DNA from: a bacterium
GTDB lineage: Bacteria; Oederibacteriota; JAAXVQ01; JAUVAV01
Reading direction: 5' to 3'
Assembly (NCBI GenBank): GCA_021108215.1
Contig: JAIORK010000045.1
Coordinates: 64,594 to 128,593, forward strand
DNA: 64,000 nt
This document shows positions 3,523 to 63,999 of the stretch, piece after piece; positions within the stretch are counted from its first letter, which is position 1; each line of letters starts with the position of its first letter. Both the position numbers and the translations under genes were made by a program. The notes beneath the pieces are model-generated. The model was not told the DNA's origin. It saw only the letters and a program-made list of their open reading frames with translations, and did not search any database.

Positions 3523-3578
3523 TATATAATTTCCCCGACTTGTGGCATAATGAGTCCACTTTTTTCAGGAGGCGTGTT

Positions 3579-8355: not shown

Positions 8356-8615
8356 CCCTCCTGAAAAAATCAAATTGGAACTCATTTTTCGATAAAGCCT
8401 GGTCAAACGATTGAGCAAGTACGCTGCCGGGATTTGGATGATACGATGACACCTCGCCTTCGTGACCACTATTTTAGTGTCTATCCTCATCCCCGTTCCG
8501 TGCTTTGTCCTTTGGCAGCACACGCGATCAATCGTCTGAGTAGGGAATGGTCGCGACCATTCCCTACTATCGGTTGAAATCTGTGCGCACTGTTGAACGA
8601 GTACGCAGCATGGGT
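8356..8615 (+). mobile_element. MITE-like element copy B (3' truncated, degenerate 5' TIR)
   Basis: Aligns to copy A across the body. REP at 8540-8567. Followed by the X motif CTGTGCGCACTGTTGAACGAGTACGCAGC. The listed minus ORF 8332..8523 is an artefact of this conserved noncoding DNA. Confidence 0.65.
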
Positions 8616-10119: not shown

Positions 10120-10449
10120 ACTATCCTCCTGAAAATTCTCGTTTTTTCATACATATTCTATGGGTATCGCCCCAAACAAACCCGCGTATTGTATCCTCCG
10201 ACTATCTGAAATGCAAGTTTTTTTTGGACACGGTTCCGCTCTCTCTTAAAGGGACAAACTAATGAATTATGATTAGGTTTTTTCTTTTCCAACCGAAACT
10301 TTATCTATGAAACAACCCCGGAGCAAGCCCCAGGATATCCGGCAGCCTGCCCCGTGCGTCCTTTATTCAAACCCTGCCGTAATCGGCAGGGTTTGATAGG
10401 CGAAAGGGTATAAACAGAGCACCCTTAAAATCCGCGTCAGGAGTGTACT

Positions 10450-13400
10450 GTGTTCTCCCATCTGAGCCCCTATTTCATTATCAGTCTGGCCGCAATCGTA
10501 TTTTTGACCCTGATCTTTTCGGGCATATTACTCATGATCATTTTCTCCATCAACCGCGCCCTTAGCAAAAGAAGCTCAAAACTTGAAGCCGGCAATAAGC
10601 GTCTGGAAACGCGCTTAAGCGCGGCCGCCACGGATCTTTCTACGCTCCGTGATTTACTGCAAAAAGAAATCGATTGTCATCAACAAATTGACAAAGACCG
10701 GGAATTCCAGGACCGGCTGATGCGCGGCACCTCGGAAGCTACTGATCGTCTCCTCTCCATTTTCAGCTATGATGAAGATTATGCAATTGCCATGATGGAA
10801 ATTTTTGCAACCATAGGCCGCATTACCAACTATGACCGTGTCTATTTATGCGAAAACCACGATCTGCCCGGCAGCCACCACCTGGGATTCAGCCGCCGGT
10901 TCGAGTGGTGCCGCGAAGAAATCATCGAGACAATCAATGATGCTTCCTCAAAAAACTGCAGTTATCAGTCCGAAACCTTCTCCCGGTGGCACGGTACCCT
11001 CTCGTCGCGCAATCCCATCCACAGCCTCACTGCCGACGTTCCCCCTGCAGAACAAAATTATAATCTCGATTATGCTATCCATTCTTTCTTGTTGATTCCC
11101 ATTCATGTTGAGAATGGTTTTTGGGGATTTCTTGGATTTGATGATTGTCACACCAATCATCCCTGGAATAAAAATGAAGATTACCTGCTGACATCTTTGG
11201 CCGGCAACATTGCCAATGTCATCCAACGTAAACAAATCCACGAACAATTGCAACAGGCATTGGATATACCCAACACTATTCTGAAAAAAATGCCCTTCGG
11301 GGTCATCGTTTTCCAAAAAGACAATACCATCCGCAGTGTAAATGTGACTGCCGTCCAAATGCTGGGTGCGCAAAAGGAAGCGGACCTGATTCAGTATCCG
11401 ATTGATAAATTCATCCCAGAATACAGGGAATTTTTTCAAAACAACCCTCCCGGAACCCGGGAATTATTTCTACAACAGTTAAACCAGCAGAAATTGCCGG
11501 TTTTATGTACAGTCGTCCCGATTACGCTGGCCGGCGAAGAGGTTATTTTAACCTCGTTTGTCAACATTGTCGAAGTACACGAAGCCCGCCAGGACGCTGA
11601 AAAATCCAACAAATTATTGGCCGAATCTGTCCGGCAAGCCAATGATCTGGCCGTTTTGGCGGAACAAGCCAGTCTGGCCAAAACTGAATTTCTGGCCAAT
11701 ATGAGCCATGAAATCCGAACGCCGATGAATGCCATTATTGGCATGATTCAACTGGTCCTGGATACTGAGATGAACCCTGAACAACGTGATTATCTTGCCA
11801 AAGCCTTGTTGGCCTCTGATTCATTGCTGGGATTAATCAATGCCATTCTTGACTTTTCCAAGATTGAGTCCGGTTACCTGACCCTGGAGGAAATTGATTT
11901 TGACTTGCGTACTGTGGTCGAGACCGCCACCGAGACCCTGGCCGCCAAAGCAGCGGATAAAAATCTTGAACTTGCCTGCCGTGTCTCCCCAACCACACCA
12001 ACAACATTAATCGGCGATCCGGGCAGACTGCGGCAGATCATCCTCAACTTAACCGGCAATGCGATCAAATTCACCGACCAAGGCGAAATAATCCTATCGG
12101 TCGATATAAAAAGCGAATCTGAGAAAAAAGTCGAAATCGTCCTGAATATTTCTGATACCGGGATAGGGATTGCTCCGGAAAAACAGCAACTTATTTTCGA
12201 TACCTTCACCCAGGCCGACACCTCAACCACCCGGCGGTATGGCGGAACCGGTCTTGGATTATCCATCACCAAACAATTGGTTGAACTCATGGGCGGCAGC
12301 ATTACTCTGGATAGCCAGATCGGCCAGGGCAGCCAATTCACACTGACGATTCCCTTCGTGCTGCAAAGCCATCCGAAAACAGTGGAGCCTGCTCCGACTG
12401 TCCCGCTGGAAAACATGCGTGCCCTGATTGTAGACGACAATGCCATCAATCGTCAAATTTTCAGGGAAATTCTACAGAGCTGGAAAATGATCACTTCAGA
12501 AGCCGACAATGGCCGGATGGCCATCGATCAATTACAAGCAGCGTATCAGAAAGGCGAACCGTTCCATCTTTTGCTGCTGGATATTTTGATGCCCGAGATG
12601 GACGGATTTACCGTGGCAACCACCATTGCGCATGAGCCGTATTATCAAGACCTTAAAACTTTCATCGTCACCTCGGCAGGAATACGCGGCGATGGCGCCC
12701 GTTCACGCAAACTGGGAATTACCGGTTATCTGACCAAACCCATAAAAAAATCCGAACTATTCCATTCCCTTTCCGAAGGATTTAGTCAAAAACCAAAGCA
12801 GCTTGCCAAACCAACAATGATCACCAAGCATACGATCAAGGAACGCATTTCACGCTTAAATATTTTAGTAGTGGAAGACAATGCCATCAACCGGCAGCTC
12901 ATGCTCGCCTTATTGGGCAAACGCGGTGATGCTGTGGCAGAGGCGGAAGATGGCCTACAGGCACTCACCTGTATGACAGAACAACACTTTGACCTCATCT
13001 TGATGGATGTGCAAATGCCGCGCATGGATGGATTTGAGACCACCCGGGAAATCCGAAAACAGGAGCAAACGACCGGCGGACACATCCCGATCATTGCCAT
13101 GACCGCGCATGCCTTAAAAGGCGACCGCGAACACTGCCTGGAAGCAGGCATGGATGATTATATTTCCAAACCCATTGAGCGCAAATTGCTTTTTGAGCTG
13201 ATCGACAAGTATGCCCAAAGCATTCGCAGTGCCAAGCGGTCCCAAGCTGAATCATGGACTTCCAATCCACCGAAAGATGCCGTCATCACCGATGCGCCGG
13301 ATCTTCCCATCATCCATTTCAAGACAGCCTTGGACCGTGCCGACGGAGATAAAACACTGCTCAAGGACCTGTTAATTTCATTTTCCGATCAATCCCAAGC

Positions 13401-21837: not shown

Positions 21838-22126
21838 TCTGTGTGTGCTGTTGAACGAATAAGCTGCAGGGGTAGGGAATGGTCGCGACCATTCCCTACT
21901 CAGACGATTGATCGCGTGAGCTGCCAAAGGACAACGGTCGAAACGGGGATGCGGATAGACATAAAGTAACGGCCACGAAGGCGAAGTATCATCGTATCAT
22001 CCAACTCCCGGCATCCGGCATTCGCCGGACAAGTTACGCCGGGCAATGCCTGGCAGCGTACTTGCTCAATCGTTTAACCGGGCTTCATCGGGAAATGAGT
22101 TCCAATTTGATTTTTTCAAGATCAAC
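21838..22126 (-). mobile_element. MITE-like element copy C (reverse orientation) carrying a nested 42-bp CCGGCGAATGCCGG-type insertion
   Basis: Reverse complement aligns to copies A, B and D. REP at 21872-21899. Degenerate TIR TTTTTTCAAGATCAAC at 22111-22126. Shares the insertion AGGCATTGCCCGGCGTAACTTGTCCGGCGAATGCCGGATGCCGG with copy D. Confidence 0.65.
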
Positions 22127-22171
22127 TAAAAAATGCTTAGAGGCTGGCTCGCCTGTTTGACAACCCTATAA

Positions 22172-24892: not shown

Positions 24893-25167
24893 ATCGATCC
24901 TGAAAAAGTAAAATCAGAACTCATTTACCGATGAAGCCCGGTTAAACAATTGAGCAAGTACGCTGCCAGGCATTGCCCGGCGTAACTTGTCCGGCGAATG
25001 CCGGATGCCGGGATTCGGATGATACGATGATGCTCGCCTTCGTGGCCGCTATTTTAGTGTCTATCCTCATCCCCGTTCCGACCTTTGTCCTTTGGCAGCT
25101 CACGCGATCAATCGTTTGACCAGGCGATAGTAGGGAATGGTCGCGACCATTCCCTACTATCGGTGAA
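24893..25167 (+). mobile_element. MITE-like element copy D (intact 5' TIR, 3' truncated at the xerD stop) with a nested 42-bp insertion
   Basis: 5' TIR ATCGATCCTGAAAAAG at 24893-24908. REP at 25130-25157. Nested CCGGCGAATGCCGG at 24991-25004. Confidence 0.65.
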
Positions 25168-25188
25168 GACCGACTACACTCTCACCGC

Positions 25189-32423: not shown

Positions 32424-32960
32424 CTACGGAATCTTTCCTTCCCATTCCGGATTTTCTTCATCTTCCGCCCACTTCAATGGATTATTTTGAATGTATTTTC
32501 TAATGCTATGCAATTCCCTGTCATTACGGATAATACGGTCGTAATAAGATTTTTGCCAAACCGGCAACCCCTGCGTTTGGCGTAATTGATTGATCGTTTT
32601 CGATGCATATGTTTTAAAACCACGTACGATTTCCGGCAACCCGTGGTGTTGTGTTTCATTCGTCGTAGGGAACGGTTTCAAACCGTTCCCTACAAAATTC
32701 GTGATAACAATAATTCCGTGTAAATGATTAGGCATAATCACATATTCATCCAATCGACAATGTCCATAATGGTGCGGCGGTTTTTCCCAATACGTCATCG
32801 CAATTTCCCCATATTCATTCAGTTTTATTTTACCATTTATTATTTCCCCGAATAAGCATTCCCGAGTATGTGTACACAAAGTAATAAAATACGCACCTGC
32901 GGCAGAATAATCATAATCCAACAGACGATTCCTTTTGCGTTCACGCATAATTGTTTTCAT
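32424..32960 (-). CDS. REP-associated tyrosine transposase (RAYT; IS200-like Y1 HUH transposase)
   Basis: HuH motif MPNHLHGIIVI and catalytic Tyr region WQKSYYDRIIRND...IRKYIQNNPLKW. Size and pattern are typical of TnpA_REP. Flanked by REPs. An internal 29-nt REP copy at 32665-32693 is translated in-frame. Confidence 0.8.
   Translation of the reverse strand: MKTIMRERKRNRLLDYDYSAAGAYFITLCTHTRECLFGEIINGKIKLNEYGEIAMTYWEKPPHHYGHCRLDEYVIMPNHLHGIIVITNFVGNGLKPFPTTNETQHHGLPEIVRGFKTYASKTINQLRQTQGLPVWQKSYYDRIIRNDRELHSIRKYIQNNPLKWAEDEENPEWEGKIP
32665..32693. repeat. REP copy located inside the RAYT coding sequence (encodes NFVGNGLKPFP)
   Basis: 29/29 identity to the REP at 32355, including the shared flanks TC...AAA. 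Confidence 0.8.
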
Positions 32961-33094
32961 ATCCCTGCCCTTTTTGTCGTGCTAATTTTTGTTCCTGCTC
33001 AGGCCAGCGCGCTTTTTTCAGATTAAGATGTTTACTCACATTTTTATTATCATCAAATTTCTCATTAAACTGTTTTTCTTTCAGCCGCACCTCT

Positions 33095-33625
33095 CTATTT
33101 CTTCCTGAATCCAATAGGTTTATTTTTCTTTTTGAGCGTTACAGGTAATTTGAGCATTTCATCAATAATGCCATCTATCCTGGTGATACGCTTGTCATGA
33201 TTAATCTGTTTCGCTTCCACTCGATTAAGATGTTTGTAGAGATCCTTGTGAATAACACTCCATTCACGTAATTTGGTGAAAGTACGCATGATTTGAATAT
33301 TAATCTGAATAGCCAGTTCATTTTGCAGCACGGTCGAAAGCATTGACACACCATTCTCAGTAAACGCGAATGGCAAATACTTGGAATGGCGTCCTTTCTC
33401 TAAGGTGCCAAATTGGCACCTTAGAGAAACCGTTTCTTCCTTTGTTAAGACGAGTAAAAAATCATCCGGAAAACGGCTGATATTTCTTTTCACCTGTCTT
33501 TTTAATTGTCTCGTTTCCACCCCATACAATTCCGCCAAATCCTGATCAAGCAAGACCTTTTTTCCACGAATAAAATGAATTTTTGATTGAATCGAGTCGA
33601 TGGGTACAATAATTTTTTCCGGCAT
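33095..33625 (-). CDS. ORF6N-domain (KilA-N-like DNA-binding) protein
   Basis: IHFIRGKKVLLDQDLAELYGVETRQLKRQVKRNISRFPDDFLLVLTKEE and YLPFAFTENGVSMLSTVL match the ORF6N domain consensus. Contains a 17-bp perfect hairpin at 33397-33431. Confidence 0.65.
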   Translation of the reverse strand: MPEKIIVPIDSIQSKIHFIRGKKVLLDQDLAELYGVETRQLKRQVKRNISRFPDDFLLVLTKEETVSLRCQFGTLEKGRHSKYLPFAFTENGVSMLSTVLQNELAIQINIQIMRTFTKLREWSVIHKDLYKHLNRVEAKQINHDKRITRIDGIIDEMLKLPVTLKKKNKPIGFRKK

Positions 33626-33765
33626 GAGTCCTCCATATTCGCGTGATATGGAGTTAGACTAAAAATCCCTAAATTTCATGCAAATAAAATCACCTTGGCT
33701 CAAAATATTTCTATTACGGTATTTAGTTGAAGAAACGCGCCCGGGTGTTTTTGTAAGACCTAGTC

Positions 33766-33814
33766 GTAGGGAACGGTCAGCTTGCCTGACGAATGCCGGG
33801 CGACCGTTCCCTAC
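33766..33814. repeat. REP element, long-loop variant (GTAGGGAACGGTC-[AGCTTGCCTGACGAATGCCGGGC]-GACCGTTCCCTAC), preceded by the 28-nt direct repeat at 33725-33752
   Basis: Same stem as the other REPs, with a nested CGAATGCCGGGC-type insertion in the loop. Near-identical copies at 42205 and 43326. Confidence 0.8.
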
Positions 33815-33914
33815 GGTAGTTCAAATAATCAAACAAGTGTGTTAATTAAACATTTAAACTCCGGCACAAATCATTTCTATTGCCGTATTACCGAACTACG
33901 TCCCGTATTCCGCA

Positions 33915-34313
33915 TCAGCTTGATAAAAGACCGGATTTTTCCAGCGCATCAACTAATTTTTTCTCGTCAAATGGTTTACGCACATATCCGGCAATCTGCC
34001 CTTCAAATACGCGCATTGCATACTTGGGATTATTGGAAGCGGTCAACATAATGATTTTAATTTCCTTGATCCCTCTGCAAACCCGGGGATGCTCCATCTG
34101 CCGGATGGTTTTCAATGTCTCAATCCCATCCATTCCGGGCATCATGAGATCAAGAAAAACACAATCCACATCCTCTTCGGCAGACCAGTACCTTTTGATA
34201 ATTTCAATCGCTTCCGCGCCTGACAGTGCTTTTTCACATTCGCCATAGGGTCTCAGAAAACATTCGACCAATTCACAAATATCCGGTTCATCGTCAATAA
34301 TCAAAATCCGCAT
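33915..34313 (-). CDS. Orphan single-domain response regulator receiver (CheY-like)
   Basis: MRILIIDDEPD ... FLDLMMPGMDGIE ... KPF. ATG at 34313 follows AGGGGGA. Confidence 0.8.
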   Translation of the reverse strand: MRILIIDDEPDICELVECFLRPYGECEKALSGAEAIEIIKRYWSAEEDVDCVFLDLMMPGMDGIETLKTIRQMEHPRVCRGIKEIKIIMLTASNNPKYAMRVFEGQIAGYVRKPFDEKKLVDALEKSGLLSS

Positions 34314-34601
34314 AAATATCCCCCTGTCGAGCATCCTTGCAGGCCATGTATATGCCGCCAATCTGCTATAATATCATTCACCCATTCCAAAGTATCGACA
34401 TTTTGGCGCATTTTATTACAGGTACAACACTCCTTCTTCAGACTATGTTCGGTGCCGAAGTTCGAATGTTCGAATAACTCCCCACCCTCACCCTGCCCTC
34501 TCCCCTCAAGGGAGAGGGTTCATTGAAAAAAATCCGGGAACCTTGCTTTTTTTATCTCTCGCAAAGCCGCTAAGCGCAAAATCATTTTAAGGTGTGAAAA
34601 T

Positions 34602-35009
34602 TTATTCAATGGTGAGGTGTTTGATAACTTTTTTGATTGTCTTTCTCGTAAAATCAATATATTCCCTGCATTCTTTGCGGGTCGGATCAATACCGCCGTC
34701 GTATAAATCAAGATTTCGCTTGGTTCGCATAAGGTTTCCCATGGTCACCACATCTTTGCTCTTTAATATTTCTCCCATTTTCTCAATAATTTTCATATGG
34801 TGACCCGGTACGCTGCGGGTATGCACTTGATGATTCGCCAACAAGGCGATCCCGGCTTTCAAAAATGCTGAATAGGCATAATTAAATTTAACAGAGGCAA
34901 AGGTATCTTTTTCGGCAATATCCAGATCCTTGAGCGCATTTCTGTAATACTGCTGCACCTGCTCACTGGTATACTTCTGCTTCCGAAAAAAACGCTCTTC
35001 AAATTTCAT
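34602..35009 (-). CDS. HEPN domain protein (toxin-like partner of the upstream MNT)
   Basis: 135 aa, helical, with candidate Rx4HH motif (HTRSVPGHH). ATGA-coupled to the MNT gene, as in HEPN/MNT modules. Confidence 0.5.
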   Translation of the reverse strand: MKFEERFFRKQKYTSEQVQQYYRNALKDLDIAEKDTFASVKFNYAYSAFLKAGIALLANHQVHTRSVPGHHMKIIEKMGEILKSKDVVTMGNLMRTKRNLDLYDGGIDPTRKECREYIDFTRKTIKKVIKHLTIE

Positions 35010-35554
35010 ACATCAATCTTGATATACTTTTTTTTAAGAATGTCTGTAACCAATGGTTCTTTTTTCTTTTTCCGGCTGAGAAACTCTTTTTCATCCATAT
35101 GAATGACATTGATTTCCCGATTGATCTCTTTTTGAATGCTATTCATTTTGCGTTGCACATCGAGTACTTTATGGTTTCCGATAACCATAAGATCAACATC
35201 ACTCCGGTTATCCATTGTTCCATTGGCATATGAGCCGAAGATAATCGCTGTTTTGGCACCCTTGACATGTTCAAGCATTTTCCCGACCTTTTGTTCAAAC
35301 CCAGTTTGCTTTAATACGATTTTTTTATATTCACTGAGAAAGGGATATTTTTTATTAAGCGCATATAATTTCAAATTCCCCCGCATTTTGCTCTGCAATA
35401 TCCCTTCGCGCTGGAGTTCATTTAATTTTTTCACCAAATTGCGTTTATCCAATAAAAGCGTACTTTGAAGTTCATTAACATAAAGCTCTTCCGTATCATT
35501 CAAAAAAAAGTAATTCAAAACAGCTTGCGTTATTTTGGACCGTAAGGATATCAT
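35006..35554 (-). CDS. Minimal nucleotidyltransferase (MNT) with N-terminal wHTH
   Basis: IIFGSYANGTMDNRSDVDLMVIG is the MNT GS...DxD signature. Pairs with the HEPN gene. Confidence 0.75.
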   Translation of the reverse strand: MISLRSKITQAVLNYFFLNDTEELYVNELQSTLLLDKRNLVKKLNELQREGILQSKMRGNLKLYALNKKYPFLSEYKKIVLKQTGFEQKVGKMLEHVKGAKTAIIFGSYANGTMDNRSDVDLMVIGNHKVLDVQRKMNSIQKEINREINVIHMDEKEFLSRKKKKEPLVTDILKKKYIKIDV

Positions 35555-42204: not shown

Positions 42205-42253
42205 ATTCATCACCGTAGGGAATGGTCAGCTTACCTGGCGAATGCCGGGCGAC
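42205..42253. repeat. REP element, long-loop variant (GTAGGGAATGGTC-[AGCTTACCTGGCGAATGCCGGGC]-GACCATTCCCTAC)
   Basis: Same family as 33766 and 43326. In the cargo/fba divergent intergenic region. Confidence 0.8.
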
Positions 42254-42381
42254 CATTCCCTACTTTAAGTGCATTGAATTTCTCCGCAGAATTCAGTTGC
42301 CTTTTCGCATGCTTTGACTATAATGTCAGCCGAACTCAAAGTGCCGTCTGGGCGCCAATCAATACTAAAGGAGTCACCATT

Positions 42382-43325: not shown

Positions 43326-43374
43326 GTAGGGGACGGTCAGCTTGCCTGGCGAATGCCGGGCGACCGTTCCCTAC
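43326..43374. repeat. REP element, long-loop variant (GTAGGGGACGGTC-[AGCTTGCCTGGCGAATGCCGGGC]-GACCGTTCCCTAC)
   Basis: Directly downstream of the fba stop. Confidence 0.8.
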
Positions 43375-43593
43375 AAAAATTCACGCCAATTTGAACAAAC
43401 ATACGGAATTCCGATGCATCCCCTCAGGAGTTCCCTAACAATATTTCATGTTTTTAGTTTCCCTTCCGATGCTGGTTTTACCAGATTGGGCAAAACGAAT
43501 AAAACCCAAAAACCCAAGCAAGCGGGGTGATTAAGGTCCACGGACATCCCCCACCGGGACTCCGGGACCGTAAGAAGGCAAGGTGATACCATC

Positions 43594-54933: not shown

Positions 54934-55878
54934 TCAGCTGTCACTATCCACAAATGCGTGCTTGTGCTGTGCTTCCATATCATCAACTTTTTTCCAGGTG
55001 ATATGACCCAGCCGGGAAATCTTTTTAAAAATGGTTTCAGCATTCTTCGTATGCATATGCACCTTGAATAATCCGCGCTCCGCTGAAGCAATCATGAGTT
55101 CTTCGCCCATTGGCTGCAGGACCGCTGTCAGCTCACTCCGCGTCAATTTTTCACCATGGATTATAAACTCCGCACAATATTTATATTCTGAAATTTTAAC
55201 AGGACGCGCCGACCGGGCGGCAGCCGGCATCAAGGGTGTATGTATTGCCGCCTCGGCTTGAAGTGATTGCCGGAAATTAAACCGCACCATACCTTCAAGA
55301 AAATACACCAAACCCATCCCGCCGGCATCCACGACATTATTATCTTTAAGAACTTTTAATTGTTTAGGCGTATTTTCCAATGCCCTTTCCGCCCCCCGCC
55401 AGGCGGAAACCATGACATCAATCAGGTTCCGGCTTTTCCGTGCCTCTTCAACCGCCTCTTTGGCTGCCGCCTCACCGACGCTCAAAATCGTACCTTCCAC
55501 CGGATTGTCAATTCTTTCTCTTGCCCGAGTGCTCCCTACTTGAAAAGCCAGTGCCAAATCCCGGGCGGAGAGTGATTTTTTATCCCCGACCGCTTCTGCA
55601 AAACCGGCAAAAAAACCGGATAGAATCATGCCTGAGCATCCCCGGCCGCCCATCAGCGTACCGCGTGCCGCTGCCCAGGCCACCTCCGAAGCACTGCCGC
55701 CCTGCACACTCTCAATTTCTTTTCGGGCTGCTTGCAGCGCATGATGCATATTTTTTCCGGTGTCTCCATCCGGAACAGGAAAAACATTCATCTTATCAAG
55801 ATGCTGTCTGAAATGTCCAAACCAGGCGATCCCTGCCAGAAGTGCATTTTTAATACGCCGACCATGGAGCATTTTCAC
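54934..55878 (-). CDS. DAK2 (DhaL-like) domain protein
   Basis: VFPVPDGDTGKNM DAK2 signature. GTG start at 55878 lies 8 nt after GGAGGA (the listed ORF begins further upstream). Confidence 0.65.
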   Translation of the reverse strand: MKMLHGRRIKNALLAGIAWFGHFRQHLDKMNVFPVPDGDTGKNMHHALQAARKEIESVQGGSASEVAWAAARGTLMGGRGCSGMILSGFFAGFAEAVGDKKSLSARDLALAFQVGSTRARERIDNPVEGTILSVGEAAAKEAVEEARKSRNLIDVMVSAWRGAERALENTPKQLKVLKDNNVVDAGGMGLVYFLEGMVRFNFRQSLQAEAAIHTPLMPAAARSARPVKISEYKYCAEFIIHGEKLTRSELTAVLQPMGEELMIASAERGLFKVHMHTKNAETIFKKISRLGHITWKKVDDMEAQHKHAFVDSDS

Positions 55879-56022
55879 CGGGTATTTCCTCCAAAAAAAC
55901 AGATTTAGGAATAGCATGCATTATACCAGACTGAGACCCGGCATAAAAGGTTTCTCCACGATGCTGCCTAAAAAAAAAGCGAGGGTCAAAAACCCTCGCT
56001 TTTTAAAAATACCTGCCTTGCA

Positions 56023-56385
56023 TTACACTACTTTTATCGGCACCCGGTTTTCCCATACACCATGCAAATTACACCTGGCCCGGACCACCAGCTCTGCAGA
56101 TTCATTTAATTTAACCGTAAAAGAAACCGGTGTACTGGAGACCGTTGCGCTCATCTCTGCCCGTCCTAAATAGCCTTCATTGGCATAGAGTTCAACCCAC
56201 TGTATCCAATGGCCGCCTTCATCCGGATGCGGTAAATGCTTACCCAGAGTAATGGTCACAACAAAAGCCTCGCGTGCCTTCACCTGGGCCGGTACCTGAA
56301 TATCCGGCACATGCTTTTTTTCCAGGTCCGTCATGGCAGCCGGATCTTTGACCCGGTTGATCCCATTAAAAAGCGGTTCATTCAT
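56023..56385 (-). CDS. sor: Superoxide reductase (neelaredoxin/desulfoferrodoxin centre II type)
   Basis: His4Cys ligand pattern: KHVPDI, HPDEGGHWIQW, CNLHGVW. Confidence 0.75.
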   Translation of the reverse strand: MNEPLFNGINRVKDPAAMTDLEKKHVPDIQVPAQVKAREAFVVTITLGKHLPHPDEGGHWIQWVELYANEGYLGRAEMSATVSSTPVSFTVKLNESAELVVRARCNLHGVWENRVPIKVV

Positions 56386-56398
56386 ACTGCACCCCCGC

Positions 56399-57235
56399 TT
56401 ATTTCAAACTAAGCATAGGAACCGTATCGCCGCCCATCACAGTAACCGGCAGCTTACCGTCCCATTTCTTGATCCATTCCAAAGACACAATATCCTTGGT
56501 AACCTGCATACGGATCAAGCGCTGCTTTTCAGCTTCCGCCTGCGCTTCCAGAATAACCTGTTCTTTATACTCCATCGCCTGCCTTTTTTTATACTCAGCA
56601 GTCTTGATCTTCTGCTCTTCAATCTGTTTTTGCTCAACCACGCGGTTAAATTCCGCAGAAAATTCAATATCCGTCAGATTGACATCCTCAACAATAATAT
56701 TGTACACAGCCAGCTTTTTTTTCAAGATATCGGCAATCACAGCTTTTAATTTAGGCCGCTCAACAATAATATTTTCCACCGGGAACAGCGCTGTACCGGC
56801 TTTGACCGCTTCCTGAATCGCCGGGTCAATCACCTTCCGTTCAAAATCCACGCCCACTTCCTGGTAAAGCGTGGAAACTTTCTGGCCGTCCAAATGGTAG
56901 TTGACCACGGTCCGCAAATTGACTTCCTGCAAATCCTTGGAAGCACCCTGACTGATCCGGTCCATTTTCTGGGTTTTAATATCAAATTTCACCACATTTT
57001 CAATAGCCGGAATCTTGAAATTCAGACCTTCCTGCATGACTACAATCTTCACCCCGGAAAGACGCGAGAAAACCACACCGCGTTCACCCGGACCAATGAT
57101 TGCAATCGGGTTGAGAACAAACAGCAGGATTAAAATTGCGCCAATAACGGCAATCCCGCCGAACCCCTTGATTGAATCTTTGTTAAATGGTTTTTTCATT
57201 TCAAATTCTTCCATAATTTTTTCCTCCTTTTTCAT
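56399..57235 (-). CDS. SPFH/band-7 (prohibitin-like) membrane protein
   Basis: N-terminal TM plus SPFH core and a C-terminal coiled coil (QAEAEKQRLIRMQ). Confidence 0.8.
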   Translation of the reverse strand: MKKEEKIMEEFEMKKPFNKDSIKGFGGIAVIGAILILLFVLNPIAIIGPGERGVVFSRLSGVKIVVMQEGLNFKIPAIENVVKFDIKTQKMDRISQGASKDLQEVNLRTVVNYHLDGQKVSTLYQEVGVDFERKVIDPAIQEAVKAGTALFPVENIIVERPKLKAVIADILKKKLAVYNIIVEDVNLTDIEFSAEFNRVVEQKQIEEQKIKTAEYKKRQAMEYKEQVILEAQAEAEKQRLIRMQVTKDIVSLEWIKKWDGKLPVTVMGGDTVPMLSLK

Positions 57236-57420
57236 TTACAAAATCTTTCAGGCAAGTATAGCGATTTAGACCAAGAAGTCAACTATTATCGGACACATTC
57301 GGATAATTAATCAAAAAAACTACCTCAATCAAAATATCTCTATATGAGTAGCCCGAAAAAATCAACCCAACGTTCGAGTACCCACCAACCAGCCTATTTA
57401 CTACATATAATATTTCGATT

Positions 57421-58461
57421 TTATGTTTTCGTTCCTCTTCCTAAATTTGCAATGATTTTATCTTTTAATTCATTCTTAAAATCCTGCATATTATCTGGAG
57501 TCCAGTCAATGTGCGGATACTGTCTGGTATCAAACGGCAGTTTCTTATTATCCAGATGATCCTTGCGGCAGGTCCAGATAATAGGTAAATTCAGTCCATA
57601 AGCAAATCCCGCTTCATAATAAATATTTGCCCTGTACCCCTTTTTTTCCGGGAACGTGGTATCTGCAATAATAAACCGTGCTTGTCTGATTTTCGCCATA
57701 ATCCTGTCACATATTTTCTCATTAATCCCGCCTTCCAAATCACCATCCAAGTCAAAACCGGAATCTTTAATTACTTCGCTCACAGCTTTTAAGTATGCTT
57801 TCATATTTTCACAATCATTCGTGTCGTCATCTTCTCCCGGAAACCAGCGTACTAGAAAAACCACATTACTATTGATATTTATTCCCGAACCCTGCAATCG
57901 TTCCCAGGCTTTTGAGGTGAGAATTATTTCCCATATTTCCATTTCTCTTCTTTCTGCTCGTGGGCTTGGCAGATTTCCAGCACCATCCCCAGAGCCATAG
58001 CCGTACCCGCCTCCGCTTCTATCCTTACTATCGGAGATCAATCCCTCGGCCAACAACTCCTCGAGATAAAATTTCAATTCATCCTGATTTTGACAATGGG
58101 CCAACGGATAATCTTTTGCAGGTTTAATCTTAAGAACATGTCCTGGATGAAGCGTTAATGAACCCAGCGCATTAAGAAATTTTTTCATTTTTTCAAGAAC
58201 AGTTAAATTTTTATGTTGATCAATAATTTCTTGGTAGGTGTATGAATCCAAATAAAATAGCTTTCGATTTTCCAAGGTGTTTTCACGAACAACTCCCGAA
58301 AGAACCCAGCGATCTTGAACACCTGAAATAATTGTTTTCGCCCGACTTGAAACCTCATACTTACCGCAGCGCGGGCATTCGAATTGTATTTTATTACTTG
58401 ATCGCGGTTGCTCATGATTGGTTTCTGCATTACCGTCGCATAATATGCATTTATGACTCAT
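57421..58461 (-). CDS. Uncharacterised protein: N-terminal zinc ribbon, Gly-rich linker, C-terminal Rossmannoid domain resembling nucleoside 2-deoxyribosyltransferase (NDT) and TIR folds (candidate defence effector)
   Basis: CILCDG-x19-CPRCGK zinc ribbon, SGGGYGYGSGDGAGN linker, and a C-terminal VVFLVRWFPGEDDD ... ARFIIADTT ... ANIYYEAGFAYGLNLPIIW. The last motif matches the catalytic-Glu motif E-x-G-[YF]-A...G-x-P-[IV] of the NDT/DNPH1 and TIR-like assemblage. AT-rich gene downstream of abiEii. Confidence 0.5.
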   Translation of the reverse strand: MSHKCILCDGNAETNHEQPRSSNKIQFECPRCGKYEVSSRAKTIISGVQDRWVLSGVVRENTLENRKLFYLDSYTYQEIIDQHKNLTVLEKMKKFLNALGSLTLHPGHVLKIKPAKDYPLAHCQNQDELKFYLEELLAEGLISDSKDRSGGGYGYGSGDGAGNLPSPRAERREMEIWEIILTSKAWERLQGSGININSNVVFLVRWFPGEDDDTNDCENMKAYLKAVSEVIKDSGFDLDGDLEGGINEKICDRIMAKIRQARFIIADTTFPEKKGYRANIYYEAGFAYGLNLPIIWTCRKDHLDNKKLPFDTRQYPHIDWTPDNMQDFKNELKDKIIANLGRGTKT

Positions 58462-58527
58462 AATTTTTTCCTCCCATCATGAACGTCTATTCCTCAGAAA
58501 TCAAAACCTGGCAGCAGCCTCTGCCGT

Positions 58528-59442
58528 TCATCGCCACGGTCCTGAGGCATGCCATGTTTTTTTAAATTCCCGCCCTTTCCCTATCGCTTCCAGCGGCTTA
58601 ATCAGGAATTTTTCAATTTCGGCAGCCGTGTTACGCAATTTTTCCGGCGCATTCCTTATACCTTCTTTTTCCAAAAATGCCTTCCACAGTGTCTGGCGGT
58701 CAGATCTCTCATCGTATATTTCCCCATCAAATATCGGCTTATGAATAGGTAAAGATGTCTTGCGATGACTAAACGTGCTATTCAATGCCTGGGCCAACTT
58801 ACTCCCATCAAATTCGAACTGACGCAGCATTAGCCAAATATCGTAAAAATCTTTCATACGGCTGTTCAAAAGACCAAGTTTTACCATCGCTTCAAATTTC
58901 TCGCTAATCACGCTTTCCGCAGGATACACCTTAAGGCGGGGCCTGGGAAAATCCAGAATTACGGGGTAGTCAATGGCTTTTGGTTTTGGACAAATTACAT
59001 CACCAAACCCGACATCAACCTGGATCGCAATGCGGGCACGATCCAAAAAAACCAGGAATTTAACCCGGACACCTTCATAATCCGCGTCTTCCTTTATCTT
59101 CCGCCCTTTGACTGTAGCAGCATCAAACTCAAGTCCATCCGGCAGTACTGGAAACACGCAAATATCCTTGATTATTTTTTCAATACTTTCCACTTGATTG
59201 TCAAACCGGGCTAAAAAATCTATATCACGGGTCGCCCTTCTTTCCGTAACCTGCCAGGCAATAAACGTAAGTGCCCCTTTGAGTATAAATTTGTCTGCAT
59301 ATTGGGATTGGCTAAACCTGTAAAGAAATCTTTCCATTCCAAAATATTGCAATATTTCAGAAAATGAACAACCGGTTTCTTTCGCCTTGTTTTGTAGCTT
59401 GGCCCGGACAGAGGCTTCCAGATTTTTTACGTCCGCTTTCAT
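58528..59442 (-). CDS. abiEii: AbiEii/AbiGii-family nucleotidyltransferase toxin (type IV TA, abortive infection)
   Basis: FILKGALTF ... ERRATRDIDFLARF matches the AbiEii (DUF1814) KGG.AL...R.T.DIDF signature. 304 aa. Confidence 0.75.
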   Translation of the reverse strand: MKADVKNLEASVRAKLQNKAKETGCSFSEILQYFGMERFLYRFSQSQYADKFILKGALTFIAWQVTERRATRDIDFLARFDNQVESIEKIIKDICVFPVLPDGLEFDAATVKGRKIKEDADYEGVRVKFLVFLDRARIAIQVDVGFGDVICPKPKAIDYPVILDFPRPRLKVYPAESVISEKFEAMVKLGLLNSRMKDFYDIWLMLRQFEFDGSKLAQALNSTFSHRKTSLPIHKPIFDGEIYDERSDRQTLWKAFLEKEGIRNAPEKLRNTAAEIEKFLIKPLEAIGKGREFKKTWHASGPWR

Positions 59443-60038
59443 AGAATCGCTTCCAGTACTGGTTTTATGATTCTGTCAACACGGCAAAGCTTGGCATATT
59501 GCATAATCTCTTTGGGCTTTGCTTTTTTTTCCAGGACAGCACCTTTGAGGGCATCTCGCGCCACATTCACGCCTATTCTATTACGGAATTTAAAGCAATC
59601 TGCAATGGTCTTAGCAAGACTATAAACTTTGATCTTATGACCTCCGATTTCAAATTCTTCGATCCCGGCTTCCCATGTCCGGGGAGCAAAGCGATAAAAC
59701 CTTACCAGTGGATATTTTATTCGATTGGCATGGGTTCCCTGGAGAATAGCTATATCCACTTTGTGAGGTATCTCATTGGTTGCTTCATGAAATGCTAATG
59801 CAGAAATAAGGCAAATAACGCCTCTGGGTGCTTGGCGCGATGCTATAACCAAATCCGGATGAGAACCATAATTGTTATTGGTTAGCTGGTATAGACCCCG
59901 GGCGATCTTTTCTATTTTCCCTTCTTTCTCAAGCAGGTTGAGGGAATCCGGATGAAATCCAGCTTCCAAAACAGCAGAAAACCGGACTATACCGCCGTTA
60001 TTCCAGATAAATTTTATACATTCATGTATTTTAGCCAA
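59439..60038 (-). CDS. abiEi: AbiEi-like antitoxin/transcriptional regulator
   Basis: 199 aa. 4-nt overlap with abiEii. wHTH-like N-terminal region. Palindromic operator-like sequences upstream (60045-60100). Confidence 0.6.
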   Translation of the reverse strand: MAKIHECIKFIWNNGGIVRFSAVLEAGFHPDSLNLLEKEGKIEKIARGLYQLTNNNYGSHPDLVIASRQAPRGVICLISALAFHEATNEIPHKVDIAILQGTHANRIKYPLVRFYRFAPRTWEAGIEEFEIGGHKIKVYSLAKTIADCFKFRNRIGVNVARDALKGAVLEKKAKPKEIMQYAKLCRVDRIIKPVLEAIL

Positions 60039-60116
60039 TATTTAATCTCCGTATGTTTTATTAATACTTGTTTGTAAGTATATATACTTTATACGGATAT
60101 GTCAACTGCTTTTTCA

Positions 60117-60389
60117 AATGCGATGATACCTCGCCCTCGTTGACCACTTTTTTAGTATCTATCCTCATCCCCATTCCGTACTTTGTCCTTTGGCAGCTCA
60201 CGCGATCAATCGTTTGAATAGGGAATGGTCGCGACCATTCCCTACTATCGATGGAGGCCTGTGCGCATTGTTTCACTCCTATGCTGCAAAGAGGCCTTCT
60301 GATTTATCGTGCTAGTGCGAACACGATAACATCCCCTTTTTACTGTTTCTTCAATAGTCACAATGCTTTTTATGTTTTTCAGGATCGAC
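60117..60389 (+). mobile_element. MITE-like element copy E (5' truncated; intact 3' TIR) abutting the AbiE island
   Basis: Aligns to copy A from GATGATAC through to the 3' TIR TTTTTCAGGATCGAC (60375-60389). REP at 60218-60245 (5' G to A). The listed minus ORF 60061..60276 is an artefact. Confidence 0.65.
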
Positions 60390-60441
60390 CAATTAAATTT
60401 CCAACAGGAATCAATTTAATCCCTGTCGGAAATAATCAGGA

Positions 60442-63081
60442 TTATTTCTCCGGCGCGGCAATGGAAAGTAAATATTTATCCGGATGAAACCATTTTCGGG
60501 CGGCAGCTGTCATCTGCTTAAACGTAACCGCCCGAATACGCCGGGCATACTCCGCAATATAATCCTTACCCAGCTGATGATATTCAATCTCCCGGTTCAA
60601 ATAAGCAATACCCGTATTGGTCTCCATCCCCATCGCCAAGCCGCCTGCCAGCCGCTCCTGTGTATCGATCAGCAGATGCCGCTTTATCCTGCCGGTTTGC
60701 AGCCGCCGGATTTGCTCCAAAGCTATTTTAACTGCTGCGTCAACTTTTTCCGGTTCTGTCTGAAATACAATGCACCAGGGACGGTTGCCGCGGGAAACGC
60801 GAAACTGCGAATAAATCGAGTATGTCAATCCGGCCCGGTCCCGCACTTCCTGCATCAGCAGGCTGGAAAGCCCGGCCCCGCCCAAAATCTGGTTGGCAAC
60901 AAACGCCGGATAATAATCAGGATGATCGCGGTGAAGGCCCTGATGCCCCAGCACCACAATGCTCTCATGTTTGCCCGGCAACCGGTGGATATGACCTTTG
61001 GATTTCATAACAGGTGCCATCTCCAAAGCAGTATTGAAATAATCCGGTGATTGGTTCCCGCTTGACTGCCATTGACCCAAATATTTTTCCATCAGTTGCC
61101 TGACCTTCTCCGGTTCTACATCCCCGGCAATCGAGAAAATAGCTTTTTCAGGACTGATCGCTGCCTGATGATACGCCAGCAAGTCCTGGCGTGTCATTTT
61201 CGGAATCCCTTTGGCAGCCGTCAGAAGACTGCGCCGCATGGGATGTCCTGCGGGATAAGCCATTTCATAAAAATGCTGCCACGCCTGCATATCGGAATTT
61301 TGCCGGACACTGTGACAGACTGCCAAAATTTCCTGCCCCGCCTTGTGCCGCTCTATCTCGGGAAAAACCGGTTTGATAAAATTTTCACCCAACACACGGA
61401 ACATAAGCGGTAAATCTTCGCACAGTGTCTCTCCGGTGATTTGAAGTTCTTCGCGCCGCGCTGTATAGAGTAACTGCGTTCCTTTAAACTCCAGGTCAGC
61501 GGCAATTTTATTGGCATCCCGCCAAAGTGATCCCCGATCCAGCATATGTGCATGCATCAGTGCCATCCCCGGTTTTTCCTGCGGCTCGGCCACAACACCA
61601 CCTTGAACCAGGCCGGAAAGCACCACCATGGGATTGCCGGGATTTGGATGAACCAGTAAAGTTGCTTGGTTGGATAAAATATATTTGGTGCAGCCATGAG
61701 AAAATTTTTCACTATGGCAACGGGACATTTTCTTTCCGGCAACCGAAGTCCGAACCGGCGCCTGCCGGCTTCGGGTCGGCGCGGCCGTTGCAATGCTGCA
61801 CGATTTCGCTTTTAATGCTTTGAGTGGAACCGTCTTCATTTTGACGCCATGCGGAAAAAAACGTCCAATCGTCATATTGGCCGGAATCAAATACTTCCCG
61901 GCAACTTCCTGAAGCTGCTTTGGAGTCACCTTGGCGACCGCCTGGAGATAGCGCTCGGGGATACGCCAGTCTTTGGCAACGGTCTCATAAAACCCCAGCA
62001 TCAAGGCTTGGTCGGTAATGCTATCCTTGGAAAAAACCAGCTGGGCACGGGTTTGATTAACTGCTTTGACGCATTCATGTTTCCGGATCAATTGTTCCCG
62101 CACCGTCGCAAATTCTTTTAAAAACACCTCCTCAACCTGTTGGGGATGTACTGCATTTTGACAAATAGCACGAAACGTCCACACACCCGGATCGATCATT
62201 TCATACGGTGAGGCATAAACATCCGTTGCCAGTCCCCGGTCAACCAATGACCGGTATAGCCGTGCTGTTTTGCCTTTGGCAAGCACATCACTTAAAACTG
62301 AGAGTGCAAAGTGGTCTTTATGACCAGCCGGGGGAATCAATAGATTGACCTGCACCATGGGCGCAGGGCCGTGATCTTCCATCACCACTTGATTCAAGCC
62401 ATGGGCAAGTTCCGCCGGATAACAGGGTTGGGCCGGTGCCTGGCCGCGGGCAATGCCGCTGAAATGCTTTTTTACATAACCGGCCAGAATTTTCTCCTCA
62501 TAGTCTCCCACCACCACCAGCACCGCATTGGACGGCGTGTAGTGCGCCCGGTAAAAATTCACCAATTGTTCCCGGGAAAGCTTCTCCACTTCCTCTTTCC
62601 AGCCGATCACCGGACGGCGGTAGGGATGATTGATCCAGGTCTGAGCATTCATCAGATCACGAAAGCGCACATGCGGATGGTTTTTATTCCCATCCAGTTC
62701 AGAAAGAATCACACTGCGCTCCTTGTGTACTTCACGCGGGTCCAGCAATGCATTGGACATGCGGTCCGCCTGTATGCGCAGCACCAATTCCAAATGCTCA
62801 GACGGCACAGTCTCATAATAAGCTGTATAATCATAACTGGTAAACGCATTTTGCTGACCGCCGGTACGCTCAATCAACCGGGAAATGTCCCCCTGGGGAA
62901 ACGCGGCCGTGCCTTTGAACAACATGTGTTCTAAAAAATGCGCCAACCCGGACTGCCCCTTACTCTCATTGCGCGCACCTACGCGGTACCACAAAAAAAC
63001 CGAGACCACCGGCATGGCACTGATTTTCTTCGTAAGAACCTTCAATCCATTCTGTAGTATTCTTTGTTTAACCCTTGGCAC
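60442..63081 (-). CDS. Tandem M16-family (pitrilysin-like) zinc metallopeptidase
   Basis: Inverted zincin motif HFLEHMLFKGT. Two M16 active/inactive unit pairs in 879 aa. Confidence 0.85.
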   Translation of the reverse strand: MPRVKQRILQNGLKVLTKKISAMPVVSVFLWYRVGARNESKGQSGLAHFLEHMLFKGTAAFPQGDISRLIERTGGQQNAFTSYDYTAYYETVPSEHLELVLRIQADRMSNALLDPREVHKERSVILSELDGNKNHPHVRFRDLMNAQTWINHPYRRPVIGWKEEVEKLSREQLVNFYRAHYTPSNAVLVVVGDYEEKILAGYVKKHFSGIARGQAPAQPCYPAELAHGLNQVVMEDHGPAPMVQVNLLIPPAGHKDHFALSVLSDVLAKGKTARLYRSLVDRGLATDVYASPYEMIDPGVWTFRAICQNAVHPQQVEEVFLKEFATVREQLIRKHECVKAVNQTRAQLVFSKDSITDQALMLGFYETVAKDWRIPERYLQAVAKVTPKQLQEVAGKYLIPANMTIGRFFPHGVKMKTVPLKALKAKSCSIATAAPTRSRQAPVRTSVAGKKMSRCHSEKFSHGCTKYILSNQATLLVHPNPGNPMVVLSGLVQGGVVAEPQEKPGMALMHAHMLDRGSLWRDANKIAADLEFKGTQLLYTARREELQITGETLCEDLPLMFRVLGENFIKPVFPEIERHKAGQEILAVCHSVRQNSDMQAWQHFYEMAYPAGHPMRRSLLTAAKGIPKMTRQDLLAYHQAAISPEKAIFSIAGDVEPEKVRQLMEKYLGQWQSSGNQSPDYFNTALEMAPVMKSKGHIHRLPGKHESIVVLGHQGLHRDHPDYYPAFVANQILGGAGLSSLLMQEVRDRAGLTYSIYSQFRVSRGNRPWCIVFQTEPEKVDAAVKIALEQIRRLQTGRIKRHLLIDTQERLAGGLAMGMETNTGIAYLNREIEYHQLGKDYIAEYARRIRAVTFKQMTAAARKWFHPDKYLLSIAAPEK

Positions 63082-63276: not shown

Positions 63277-63999
63277 TTAGTTGTTTTTCTTATGCTTACG
63301 GTATGCTCTTTTAATGGCTTTTTTATTCTTCATTATTTTGTTTCTGTTTTTATACAAATATTTGGATAATTTCGGATGTTTGGCTAAAAACGCCCGGTTC
63401 CGGAAAAGCTCTTTTGCTACCTTAGGATGTGCCACCAACCAGCGCCGCTGGCGGTATAACTGTTTCGCAACACCCGGATGTTGATTAAGCCAATAACGAT
63501 TGGCATAGGCTGCCTGCGCCACTTTGGGATGGTTATACAGCCAATCTCGATTGGCATAAACAGCTTTTGCAACTTCAGGATGATTATTTAAATAAACCCG
63601 GTTTTTATAAACCTCAATTGCAACCGCAGGATGGCTATTTAAAAATTCACGATAGTGATATATCTTTTTGGCCACTTCGGGATGATTGTTTAAATAAACC
63701 CGGTTGGCATAGGCTGCTTTGGCAACTTCCGGATGGGCTGCAAGCCATTTTTTATCTGCATAGATTGCTTCCGCAACTTTCGGATGCCCTTCCAGCCACT
63801 GCGCATTTTTCACCAGTGCTTTGGCAACTTTCGGATGTCCTTCCAACCAGACCAAATCAGCATCAGTAATGCCGGGATGCTTCGTGCGCAATTCCTCCAA
63901 AGCCTGTTTTTCCAGAGCATCCCGATTTTGTTTTTCCCACTGTTTTTGTGCTTTCACTTCATCCAAAGACAACTGCCCGTCCCCATCCTTGTCCGCCAT
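63277..63999 (-). CDS. Repeat protein with about 12 tandem 14-aa HP(E/K)VAK..Y.NR.WL units and an N-terminal EF-hand-like DKDGDGQLSLDE loop; possibly continues past window end
   Basis: Highly regular 42-nt coding periodicity and a K-rich C-terminus. The ORF reaches the window edge (63999). Confidence 0.5.
   Translation of the reverse strand: MADKDGDGQLSLDEVKAQKQWEKQNRDALEKQALEELRTKHPGITDADLVWLEGHPKVAKALVKNAQWLEGHPKVAEAIYADKKWLAAHPEVAKAAYANRVYLNNHPEVAKKIYHYREFLNSHPAVAIEVYKNRVYLNNHPEVAKAVYANRDWLYNHPKVAQAAYANRYWLNQHPGVAKQLYRQRRWLVAHPKVAKELFRNRAFLAKHPKLSKYLYKNRNKIMKNKKAIKRAYRKHKKNN

Follow-up and report, generated by a model that had tools for sequence, protein, structure and literature searches.

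A canonical AbiE module beside ORF3, a candidate single-protein abortive-infection gene, in an Oederibacteriota genome

Three co-directional minus-strand genes lie at positions 57421 to 60038 of a 64,000-nucleotide (nt) stretch of a bacterial genome of the Oederibacteriota (contig JAIORK010000045.1); this whole stretch is referred to as the window. The genes are abiEi, abiEii and a third gene, here called ORF3. We favour, at a probability of about 0.55, a reading of the locus as two separable adjacent modules: a canonical AbiE module and ORF3, a stand-alone, autoinhibited, single-protein abortive-infection candidate. The AbiE module is itself ordinary, and the value of the locus lies in ORF3. 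Defence genes that are tightly spaced, co-directional and apparently co-transcribed do not necessarily form one system.

A first-pass annotation of the window had placed the three genes between an SPFH gene and an M16 peptidase gene, with a 4-nt overlap of abiEi and abiEii and a 346-amino-acid (aa) open reading frame 66 base pairs (bp) downstream. This layout and its coordinates were reproduced (overlap, 59439-59442; abiEii-ORF3 gap of 66 nt, 58462-58527). The annotation proposed ORF3 as a third AbiE component or, failing that, as an independent single-gene defence. The results below do not bear out the former and favour the latter. The genes and the ORF3 domains are as follows.

59439-60038, minus strand: abiEi, 199 aa, TTG start; antitoxin and autorepressor, by family
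58528-59442, minus strand: abiEii, 304 aa; DUF1814 nucleotidyltransferase toxin, by family
57421-58461, minus strand: ORF3, 346 aa
58348-58461, minus strand: ORF3 residues 1-38, three-stranded zinc ribbon with ligands C5, C8, C29 and C32 (CxxC...CxxC)
57886-58347, minus strand: ORF3 residues 39-192, helical region and MarR-like winged helix
57421-57876, minus strand: ORF3 residues 196-346 and stop codon, TIR-like and nucleoside 2-deoxyribosyltransferase (NDT)-like alpha/beta domain

ORF3 and AbiE as separable neighbours

The co-occurrence of ORF3 homologues with abiE, which the first-pass annotation had proposed to survey, was not seen: relatives of the window AbiEi and AbiEii were found at none of 84 ORF3-homologue loci by tblastn, a search with one query per protein that could miss divergent AbiE subfamilies. 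The AbiEii family PF08843 accounted for at most 2 of 142 immediate neighbours, being absent from the listed neighbour families. These 142 neighbours matched 122 Pfam families, each no more than three times. When all open reading frames within 8 kb on either side were clustered, no neighbour was common to more than 7 of the 84 loci, and the commonest clusters were large generic paralogue families, restriction-modification (R-M) subunits, integrases and transposases.

The nearest homologues of each module were also unlinked. The closest ORF3 homologue, P0002 (62% identity), is a stand-alone gene next to ychF, with an AT-rich upstream region and its own TTGACA promoter. The closest AbiE pair (82-84% identity) lies beside SIR2_2 and DUF7309 genes without ORF3; the pair is followed by a gap of about 1 kb and then by the unrelated DUF7309 protein. 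Two of the four contigs with this AbiE pair came from samples that also yielded P0002 contigs. The modules are thus separable, and their adjacency is a feature peculiar to this organism. The identical gene order was present in four assemblies at 99.6-99.99% nucleotide identity to the window; these represent one organism and one locus and are not independent evidence.

The surroundings of the closest AbiE pair look like another small defence island. The pair (84%), which belongs to a related population, lies about 3.5 kb downstream of the SIR2_2-domain gene (L143, 95-661 and 4225-5738; also L144-L146) and upstream of DUF7309/DUF6930 and DUF3800 genes.

Transcription of ORF3 in the window was assessed from two elements upstream of the gene.

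58510-58525, minus strand: weak hairpin with a 5-bp stem, followed by AGGTTTTGAT, in the abiEii-ORF3 gap
58470-58475, minus strand: ORF3 ribosome-binding site (RBS) GGGAGG, 8 nt before the ATG

Within the 66-nt gap, no sigma-70-like site was detected. The hairpin may be a leaky terminator and is of doubtful significance; terminator-like sites in the region numbered 4, compared to 3.5 expected in shuffles. Since the gap has no promoter and only a weak hairpin, ORF3 is probably co-transcribed with abiE. Such read-through from the abiE promoter would be a regulatory accident or convenience and would not show that the modules share a mechanism. A G-U-rich hairpin with a T-run follows ORF3 (fold z-score -0.8). 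The RBS region was the sole upstream stretch conserved between ORF3 and the P0002 locus (p = 0.02). Insertion of abiE behind an ancestral ORF3 promoter was considered and rejected, the similarity of the abiEi and P0002 promoters giving p = 0.125.

Domains, family and genomic contexts of ORF3

AlphaFold2 models of ORF3 were confident, with a predicted local distance difference test score (pLDDT) of 85.6 over the full length and 89.0 over residues 1-192. The zinc ribbon and the C-terminal alpha/beta domain agree with the first-pass annotation, which had missed the MarR-like winged helix. Its "Gly-rich linker" is in fact an insertion (residues ~151-176) inside the wing of the winged helix; residues 151-163 are Gly-rich and disordered (pLDDT <50). 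In an alignment of 42 family members C5 was present in all 42 and the other three ligand cysteines in 34-35, and two CxxC motifs were found in 185 of 262 ORF3 relatives. The NCBI protein P0001 (K8S19_10605) begins ORF3 at Met63 (284 aa) and so loses the zinc ribbon. The 346-aa form is backed by homologue alignments and by ENA/Logan gene calls on the contigs of the four assemblies.

The C-terminal domain carries the motif ANIYYEAGFAYGLNLPIIW, with E283 encoded at 57613-57615. Residues F202, Y281, E283, A284, G285, F310, D311, R313, Q314 and W320 were invariant in the 42-sequence alignment, and a [YF][YF]EAG motif was found in 239 of the 262 relatives. The family profile places YYEAG of ORF3 opposite the catalytic GYELG of Rcl. 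ORF3 thus shows the NDT/DNPH1 hallmark, a Glu nucleophile in Y-E-x-G after the fourth strand of an NDT-like fold. Structure and alignment likewise show a TIR fold with a conserved catalytic-type Glu. The structure search proposed as a check in the first-pass annotation was run with Foldseek, and the C-terminal fold resembled both NDT and TIR folds (SPARTA TIR-APAZ, 2.6e-4; DNPH1, 9.5e-4). The PADLOC model PDLC00733, "Effector/TIR" of CBASS, matched ORF3 at 2.4e-8 and all 42 relatives, the best at 4e-16. Profile alignment, Foldseek and PDLC00733 together uphold the annotated correspondence of the motif to the catalytic Glu of NDT/DNPH1-like and TIR domains.

Assignment to either family was less direct. 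ORF3 scored 16.3 bits to PF05014, below the gathering cut-off of 28.8 bits, and ten relatives scanned individually reached at most 25.9 bits; weak PF05014 matches were seen in 37 of the 42 aligned members (best E = 6.6e-7). No Pfam TIR, TIR_2 or DUF1863 match was found for ORF3 at E <= 0.1. The modelled fold is on the NDT/TIR boundary. NDT-type enzymes carry a catalytic Tyr in strand 1, Y7 in Lactobacillus leichmannii NDT and Y13 in Rcl. Strand 1 of the ORF3 family is FVAMWF, with Phe202 invariant, and the Rcl profile alignment stopped short of it.

Mean pairwise identity was 25% in the N-terminal half and 54.5% in the C-terminal domain. At the sequence level, such a split is what a variable sensor joined to a conserved effector would show.

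The family is large. An exhaustive search returned 5,140 representative clusters (50% identity) at E <= 1e-3 and 2,705 at E <= 1e-10, with a median length of 310 aa, and all three modules were present in 230 of the 262 retrieved relatives. At least 560 species-representative genomes encode a relative. Relatives occur in Planctomycetota, Omnitrophota, Chloroflexota, Acidobacteriota, Pseudomonadota and Bacteroidota, with one in a metagenome-assembled genome (MAG) labelled as a Methanobacteriota archaeon, and members were found on Bacillus mycoides conjugative megaplasmids. There is no Pfam, NCBIfam or PADLOC model for the family as such, the PADLOC match being at the domain level only. Literature searches returned no description of the ORF3 architecture and none of an NDT/TIR-like third AbiE gene. 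JGI and PGAP label several homologues nucleoside 2-deoxyribosyltransferase, and database names for the members are either this or "hypothetical"; such names are automatic, domain-level and probably misleading.

The window ORF3 had no tblastn match in a phage collection, and a more canonical family member matched C-terminal-domain relatives only. PHROG 16139 (phrog_16139, unknown function) matched canonical members at 1e-52. Two distant domain relatives are candidates for prophage defence: SpyM3_0974 (L147, 3860-4639), located between repressor and cro in the lysogeny module of Streptococcus prophage 315.2, and gp16 of S. aureus phage SA13 (L148, 3995-4645), a reverse-oriented moron. In these proteins the domain is N-terminal, with FYEFG / FYELG and PFD motifs, the catalytic Glu kept and unrelated C-terminal extensions.

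Eleven genomic contexts of the family were annotated, the window included.

L137: type III R-M and a TIR_2 protein
L133: SEFIR protein and large methyltransferase, on a phage-like plasmid
L149: AAA_15, MNT-HEPN, PIN, HsdR-like
L150: nSTAND3, AAA_15, resolvase, RadC
L138: transposase and AAA_15/DUF3226
L132: ArpU regulator and integrase
L135: ImmA/HTH pair and hypothetical genes
L136, L151, L081: singletons among housekeeping genes only
Window: AbiE

Defence, toxin-antitoxin (TA) or mobile genes were present in 7 of these 11 contexts. Three further arrangements were observed among the loci. At L137 (Bacteroidota MAG, 9921-10847) the TIR_2 protein starts 15 nt after the ORF3-family gene inside the type III R-M cluster, so that two TIR-type genes stand in tandem. 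At L151 (6939-9053) the ORF3 homologue begins 76 nt after nadA, which encodes quinolinate synthase of NAD biosynthesis, and at L149 (12408-12878) a separate stand-alone PF05014 NDT gene lies about 3.4 kb from the ORF3 homologue. The nadA and NDT neighbours may be coincidence, yet deserve mention given the NAD+/nucleotide chemistry proposed below.

The AbiE module and the AT-rich insert

The AbiEi/AbiEii assignment of the first-pass annotation was confirmed by strong Pfam and PADLOC scores. AbiEii matched PF08843 at 1.4e-42 (146.7 bits; cut-off 22.5) and the PADLOC AbiEii model at 1.6e-100. AbiEi matched PF13338 at 1.5e-7 (31.9 bits; cut-off 25) and the PADLOC AbiEi model over its full length at 2.3e-66. 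NCBIfam gave no meaningful match for AbiEi, AbiEii or ORF3. Nucleotidyltransferase motifs I-IV of AbiEii are intact (KGA 55-57, DID 73-75, KFEAMVKLGLLNSR 182-195 and KDFYD 197-201), by the motif definitions of PMC3985639 (hG[G/S/A], DhD, K..A...R and the motif IV Asp). The subfamily is abundant, with 7,567 matches at E <= 1e-30; many homologues labelled from different phyla show 69-72% identity, as expected of a mobile module.

Two regulatory elements precede abiEi.

60077-60105, minus strand: promoter-like site TTGACA-17-TATACT, 11 of 12 consensus positions, the top site of a 3.5-kb scan
60045-60100: imperfect inverted repeat, 25-nt arms 60045-60069 and 60076-60100, 18/25 complementary, 6-nt spacer

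About 39 nt separate the promoter-like site from the TTG start of abiEi downstream, and the RBS GGAG lies 8 nt before that start. The inverted repeat spans the -10 box to the RBS and, as a long imperfect repeat, was significant against dinucleotide shuffles (p = 0.001-0.006); its 14-bp perfect palindrome core alone was not (p = 0.15). The repeat is a candidate operator for AbiEi autorepression, and the annotated suggestion of autoregulatory palindromes holds at the sequence level.

In Streptococcus agalactiae, abiE is bicistronic, its two genes overlapping by 4 nt and its promoter lying within ~60 bp of the start, AbiEi binds operator inverted repeats of 23 nt with 4 mismatches and a 3-nt spacer, and AbiE is experimentally self-sufficient as a bicistronic system (PMC3985639). 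Like the described systems of S. agalactiae and Lactococcus, the window module places the antitoxin gene ahead of the toxin gene with 4 nt shared between them, has its promoter no more than ~60 bp from the start and carries long, imperfect inverted repeats across that promoter; AbiEi has a winged-helix domain, and AbiEii is a DUF1814 nucleotidyltransferase with motifs I-IV (PMC3985639). Motif I differs, being KGA here and not GG, although Ala or Ser is tolerated there according to the same paper. Nothing essential differs, and ORF3 is not part of the described system (PMC3985639). From sequence and layout, AbiEi/AbiEii is a canonical type IV TA and abortive-infection module.

The three genes are AT-rich. 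Gene GC was 0.396, 0.435 and 0.423 for the island genes, 0.512 for M16 and 0.442 for SPFH, and the averages over 50 window genes were 0.467 ± 0.04 for GC and 0.495 ± 0.056 for GC at third codon positions (GC3). GC3 was the clearer compositional signal:

ORF3: GC3 0.352, the minimum of 50 window genes
abiEi: GC3 0.365
abiEii: GC3 0.426
M16 peptidase: GC3 0.545
SPFH: GC3 0.523

The annotated contrast of about 40% with about 52% GC is therefore roughly right for the island and M16 but not for the SPFH flank. Uniform GC, which the first-pass annotation had named as a point against an acquired island, was not observed, ORF3 having the lowest GC3. The only other clearly low-GC cluster in the window (32424-35554, gene GC 0.35-0.40) carries an IS200-like Y1 transposase fragment, an ORF6N (KilA-N-like) protein and a Polbeta/NTP_transf_2 nucleotidyltransferase. 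The last of these (35006-35554) overlaps the gene of a 135-aa partner (34602-35009) by 4 nt, and the pair at 34602-35554 is a candidate MNT/HEPN-like TA module. As this cluster also carries mobile and TA-type genes, low GC tracks accessory DNA in this genome.

The M16 side of the insert is bordered by a repeat. An element of about 320 bp that resembles a miniature inverted-repeat transposable element (MITE), with 22-nt terminal inverted repeats GTCGATCCTGAAAAAGTCAAAT, has five copies in the window, and the perfect palindrome GTAGGGAATGGTCGCGACCATTCCCTAC is present in every copy. The borders and flanks are listed below.

3213-3535, 8359-8603, 21872-22127 (reverse complement), 24896-25171 and 60118-60402: MITE copies
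60118-60402: MITE copy E, without its first ~88 nt including the left terminal repeat; insert border next to M16
57255-57282, minus strand: promoter-like site TTGACT-16-TATACT for the SPFH gene, 10 of 12 consensus positions; insert limit next to SPFH
56399-57235: SPFH/Band_7 gene, flank on the ORF3 side
60442-63081: M16 peptidase gene, flank on the abiEi side

Alignment with the four other copies, which share the ~88 nt, confirmed the annotated truncation of copy E at the island start. Homology of copy E breaks off 13 nt from the -35 box of abiEi; the absent ~88 nt were not found at the SPFH-side border of the island. Copies C and D have an extra insertion of ~42 nt. The MITE shares its ends with shorter palindromic units (GTAGGGAACGGTC...GACCGTTCCCTAC) of a second family (33766-33823, 42215-42272 and 43326-43383). 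No Rfam match was found in 55500-61500 at E <= 0.1, and a tRNA scan found no tRNA at the island borders.

The AT-rich, repeat-bordered insert of 2.9 kb holds up as accessory DNA. Its horizontal acquisition at a repeat, as first annotated, is well supported by composition and by the broken MITE but is not proven by genome comparison, which gave no empty site: the exact SPFH product was not on record, and metagenomic SPFH relatives were at most 59% identical, with no synteny with M16, SOR or DegV.

Beyond the SPFH gene lie desulfoferrodoxin and then a Dak2/DegV pair. On the other side, a 240-aa protein at 63277-63999 (L139, L141: 1444-2163) consists of tandem "HP.VAK..Y.NR.WL" repeats. It is the sole gene near the island that differs among the near-identical assemblies (95.4% versus 100% protein identity) and appears to be a variable repeat protein. 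One of the four assemblies (99.9% identity; L141, 2362-5001) has the M16 peptidase called as two open reading frames (275 and 601 aa); the cause is a frameshift or nonsense variant, or else an error of assembly.

Proposed mechanism, alternative readings and known systems

By analogy with the S. agalactiae system, and from homology and layout, AbiEi would repress the TTGACA-17-TATACT promoter through the 25-nt inverted repeat and would counteract AbiEii, a putative GTP-binding nucleotidyltransferase toxin. ORF3 would be autoinhibited at rest. Its fast-evolving zinc-ribbon and winged-helix half would sense infection through phage nucleic acid or a phage protein, and binding of this cue would make the conserved C-terminal domains dimerise or oligomerise. 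NAD+ or a nucleotide would then be cut at its N-glycosidic bond by the Glu283 site, depleting an essential metabolite and aborting infection. ORF3 may be read through from the abiE promoter here but would not depend on AbiE. We infer the catalysis, substrate, trigger and defence phenotype of ORF3 from what was observed of it: fold, motifs, family size, the lack of a conserved partner and mobile or defence-type contexts. A more specific proposal can be put forward tentatively, at somewhat less than even odds: that the ORF3 family is a widespread, unrecognised single-protein abortive-infection system in which the N-terminal half directly senses phage nucleic acid or protein and switches on an NAD+/nucleotide N-glycosidase, with the bolder addition that ORF3 expression has here been captured by the AbiEi-repressed promoter and is released when AbiE is derepressed during infection.

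Several observations weigh against a stand-alone defence role. ORF3 is substituted at nearly invariant positions (A204V, M205R and H309P), which could mean altered activity in this copy. From the modelled fold, NAD+ hydrolysis cannot be told apart from nucleotide N-glycosidase or transferase activity. Probable co-transcription with abiE leaves room for regulatory coupling. The first-pass annotation had counted mainly housekeeping contexts among homologues as evidence against its view; housekeeping singletons made up 3 of the 11 contexts, compared to 7 of conflict type, and L135 has only the ImmA/HTH pair and hypothetical genes. R-M, integrase or transposase markers were present at 12 of 50 ORF3 loci compared to 0 of 11 control loci (p = 0.07); the control is small, and the markers were drawn from these same ORF3 loci. 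The signal from defence contexts is descriptive, and the control comparison is suggestive only.

A genuine three-gene AbiE variant, in which ORF3 is an extra effector or sensor working with AbiEi and AbiEii, would agree with the co-directional genes, the 66-nt gap with its weak hairpin and no recognisable promoter (making co-transcription likely), the low GC3 of all three genes and the identical arrangement in four assemblies. The assemblies, however, are the same locus (99.6-99.99%). No relative of this AbiE pair occurs at the 84 ORF3-homologue loci, and these have no conserved neighbour. P0002, the nearest homologue of ORF3, is a lone gene under its own promoter, the nearest AbiE pair (82-84%) has a DUF7309 protein in place of ORF3, and AbiE is self-sufficient with two genes (PMC3985639). 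We consider this variant very improbable. Equally improbable is a metabolic role for ORF3 as a nucleoside 2-deoxyribosyltransferase or dNMP hydrolase in nucleotide salvage. The database names that would suggest such a role are automatic domain-level labels, PF05014 scores of ORF3 and the ten relatives all fell under the 28.8-bit cut-off, and TIR folds scored equally well. Classical NDT/DNPH1 chains are single-domain proteins of ~130-165 aa without a zinc-ribbon/winged-helix module, and the patchy phyletic pattern, variable and often mobile contexts and foreign-like GC3 of ORF3 do not fit a salvage enzyme.

Two other roles are unlikely, though less so. The zinc ribbon and winged helix might instead bind DNA as parts of a one-component transcription factor whose C-terminal domain senses a nucleotide without cleaving it, with no role in defence. 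Its DNA-binding half, however, would be the fast-evolving one (25%) and its C-terminal domain the conserved one (54.5%), the reverse of what we would expect of usual regulators; the invariant Glu aligns exactly with the NDT/DNPH1/TIR catalytic motif, no target operon is conserved nearby, and the closest profile is that of an enzymatic CBASS effector. Slightly less likely again is a selfish-element or counter-defence gene, that is, an addiction toxin or a destroyer of immune signalling nucleotides. Conjugative megaplasmids, a phage-like Leptospira plasmid and temperate phages do carry members or domain relatives, the genomic contexts vary and are mobile, and TIR/NDT-like folds could plausibly act on ADPR-derived signals. 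Against this, no antitoxin-like partner is conserved, and many members are chromosomal singletons. The prophage 315.2 gene lies in the lysogeny module co-oriented with the repressor, which would fit defence of the lysogen against other phages, and the sensor-plus-effector architecture mirrors that of defence proteins. These comparisons leave the two-module reading, with ORF3 as a single-protein abortive-infection candidate, as the one we prefer.

Among known systems, the closest profile points to CBASS, yet ORF3 did not qualify as a CBASS effector: its window neighbours are AbiE and SPFH, and its N-terminal half is a zinc ribbon with a MarR-like winged helix-turn-helix. The same sensor distinguishes it from the CBASS TIR effectors of PDLC00733, SARM1, SPARTA TIR-APAZ, ThsB and Cap12, and unlike CBASS/TIR NADases it has no Pfam TIR match. 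No CD-NTase, SAVED/STING, Argonaute or ThsA partner was found among the window neighbours, and none was conserved at the 84 loci. From the NDT superfamily (DNPH1/Rcl, the CMP hydrolases MilB/BcmB and nucleoside 2-deoxyribosyltransferases) ORF3 differs in falling below the Pfam cut-off, in its added N-terminal modules and extra invariant motif HFDTRQY, and in its mobile or accessory genomic context. The Retron-Eco1 (Ec86) effector joins an NDT-like domain to a DNA-contacting lobe (bioRxiv 10.1101/2023.08.16.553469). In ORF3 the domain order is reversed, no reverse transcriptase (window open reading frames) or msr/msd RNA (the Rfam search above) lies nearby, and no PADLOC model besides PDLC00733, hence no retron-effector model, was matched.

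Swarozyc is a single-protein DUF4062 TIR-like NADase with a catalytic Glu, whose winged-helix-type sensor binds the phage portal; autoinhibition has been proposed, and the protein is activated by a phage component and depletes NAD+ (bioRxiv 10.64898/2026.05.01.722283). On paper, as judged from sequence and model, ORF3 appears to share this TIR-like and winged-helix logic. It differs in its reversed domain order, with the sensor N-terminal, and in its extra zinc ribbon, and PF13271 (DUF4062) was matched by only 1 of 42 ORF3 relatives (E = 0.0078) and not by ORF3. We would class ORF3 as a variant on the theme of single-protein defence with a TIR/NDT effector, from a large family (~5,000 clusters at 50% identity) that is so far unstudied. 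Were it a sensor-effector NADase or nucleotidase, it would add a further branch to the TIR/NDT-based immune repertoire and offer a compact (~310 aa) system for the gating of a TIR-like enzyme by a winged helix and zinc ribbon.

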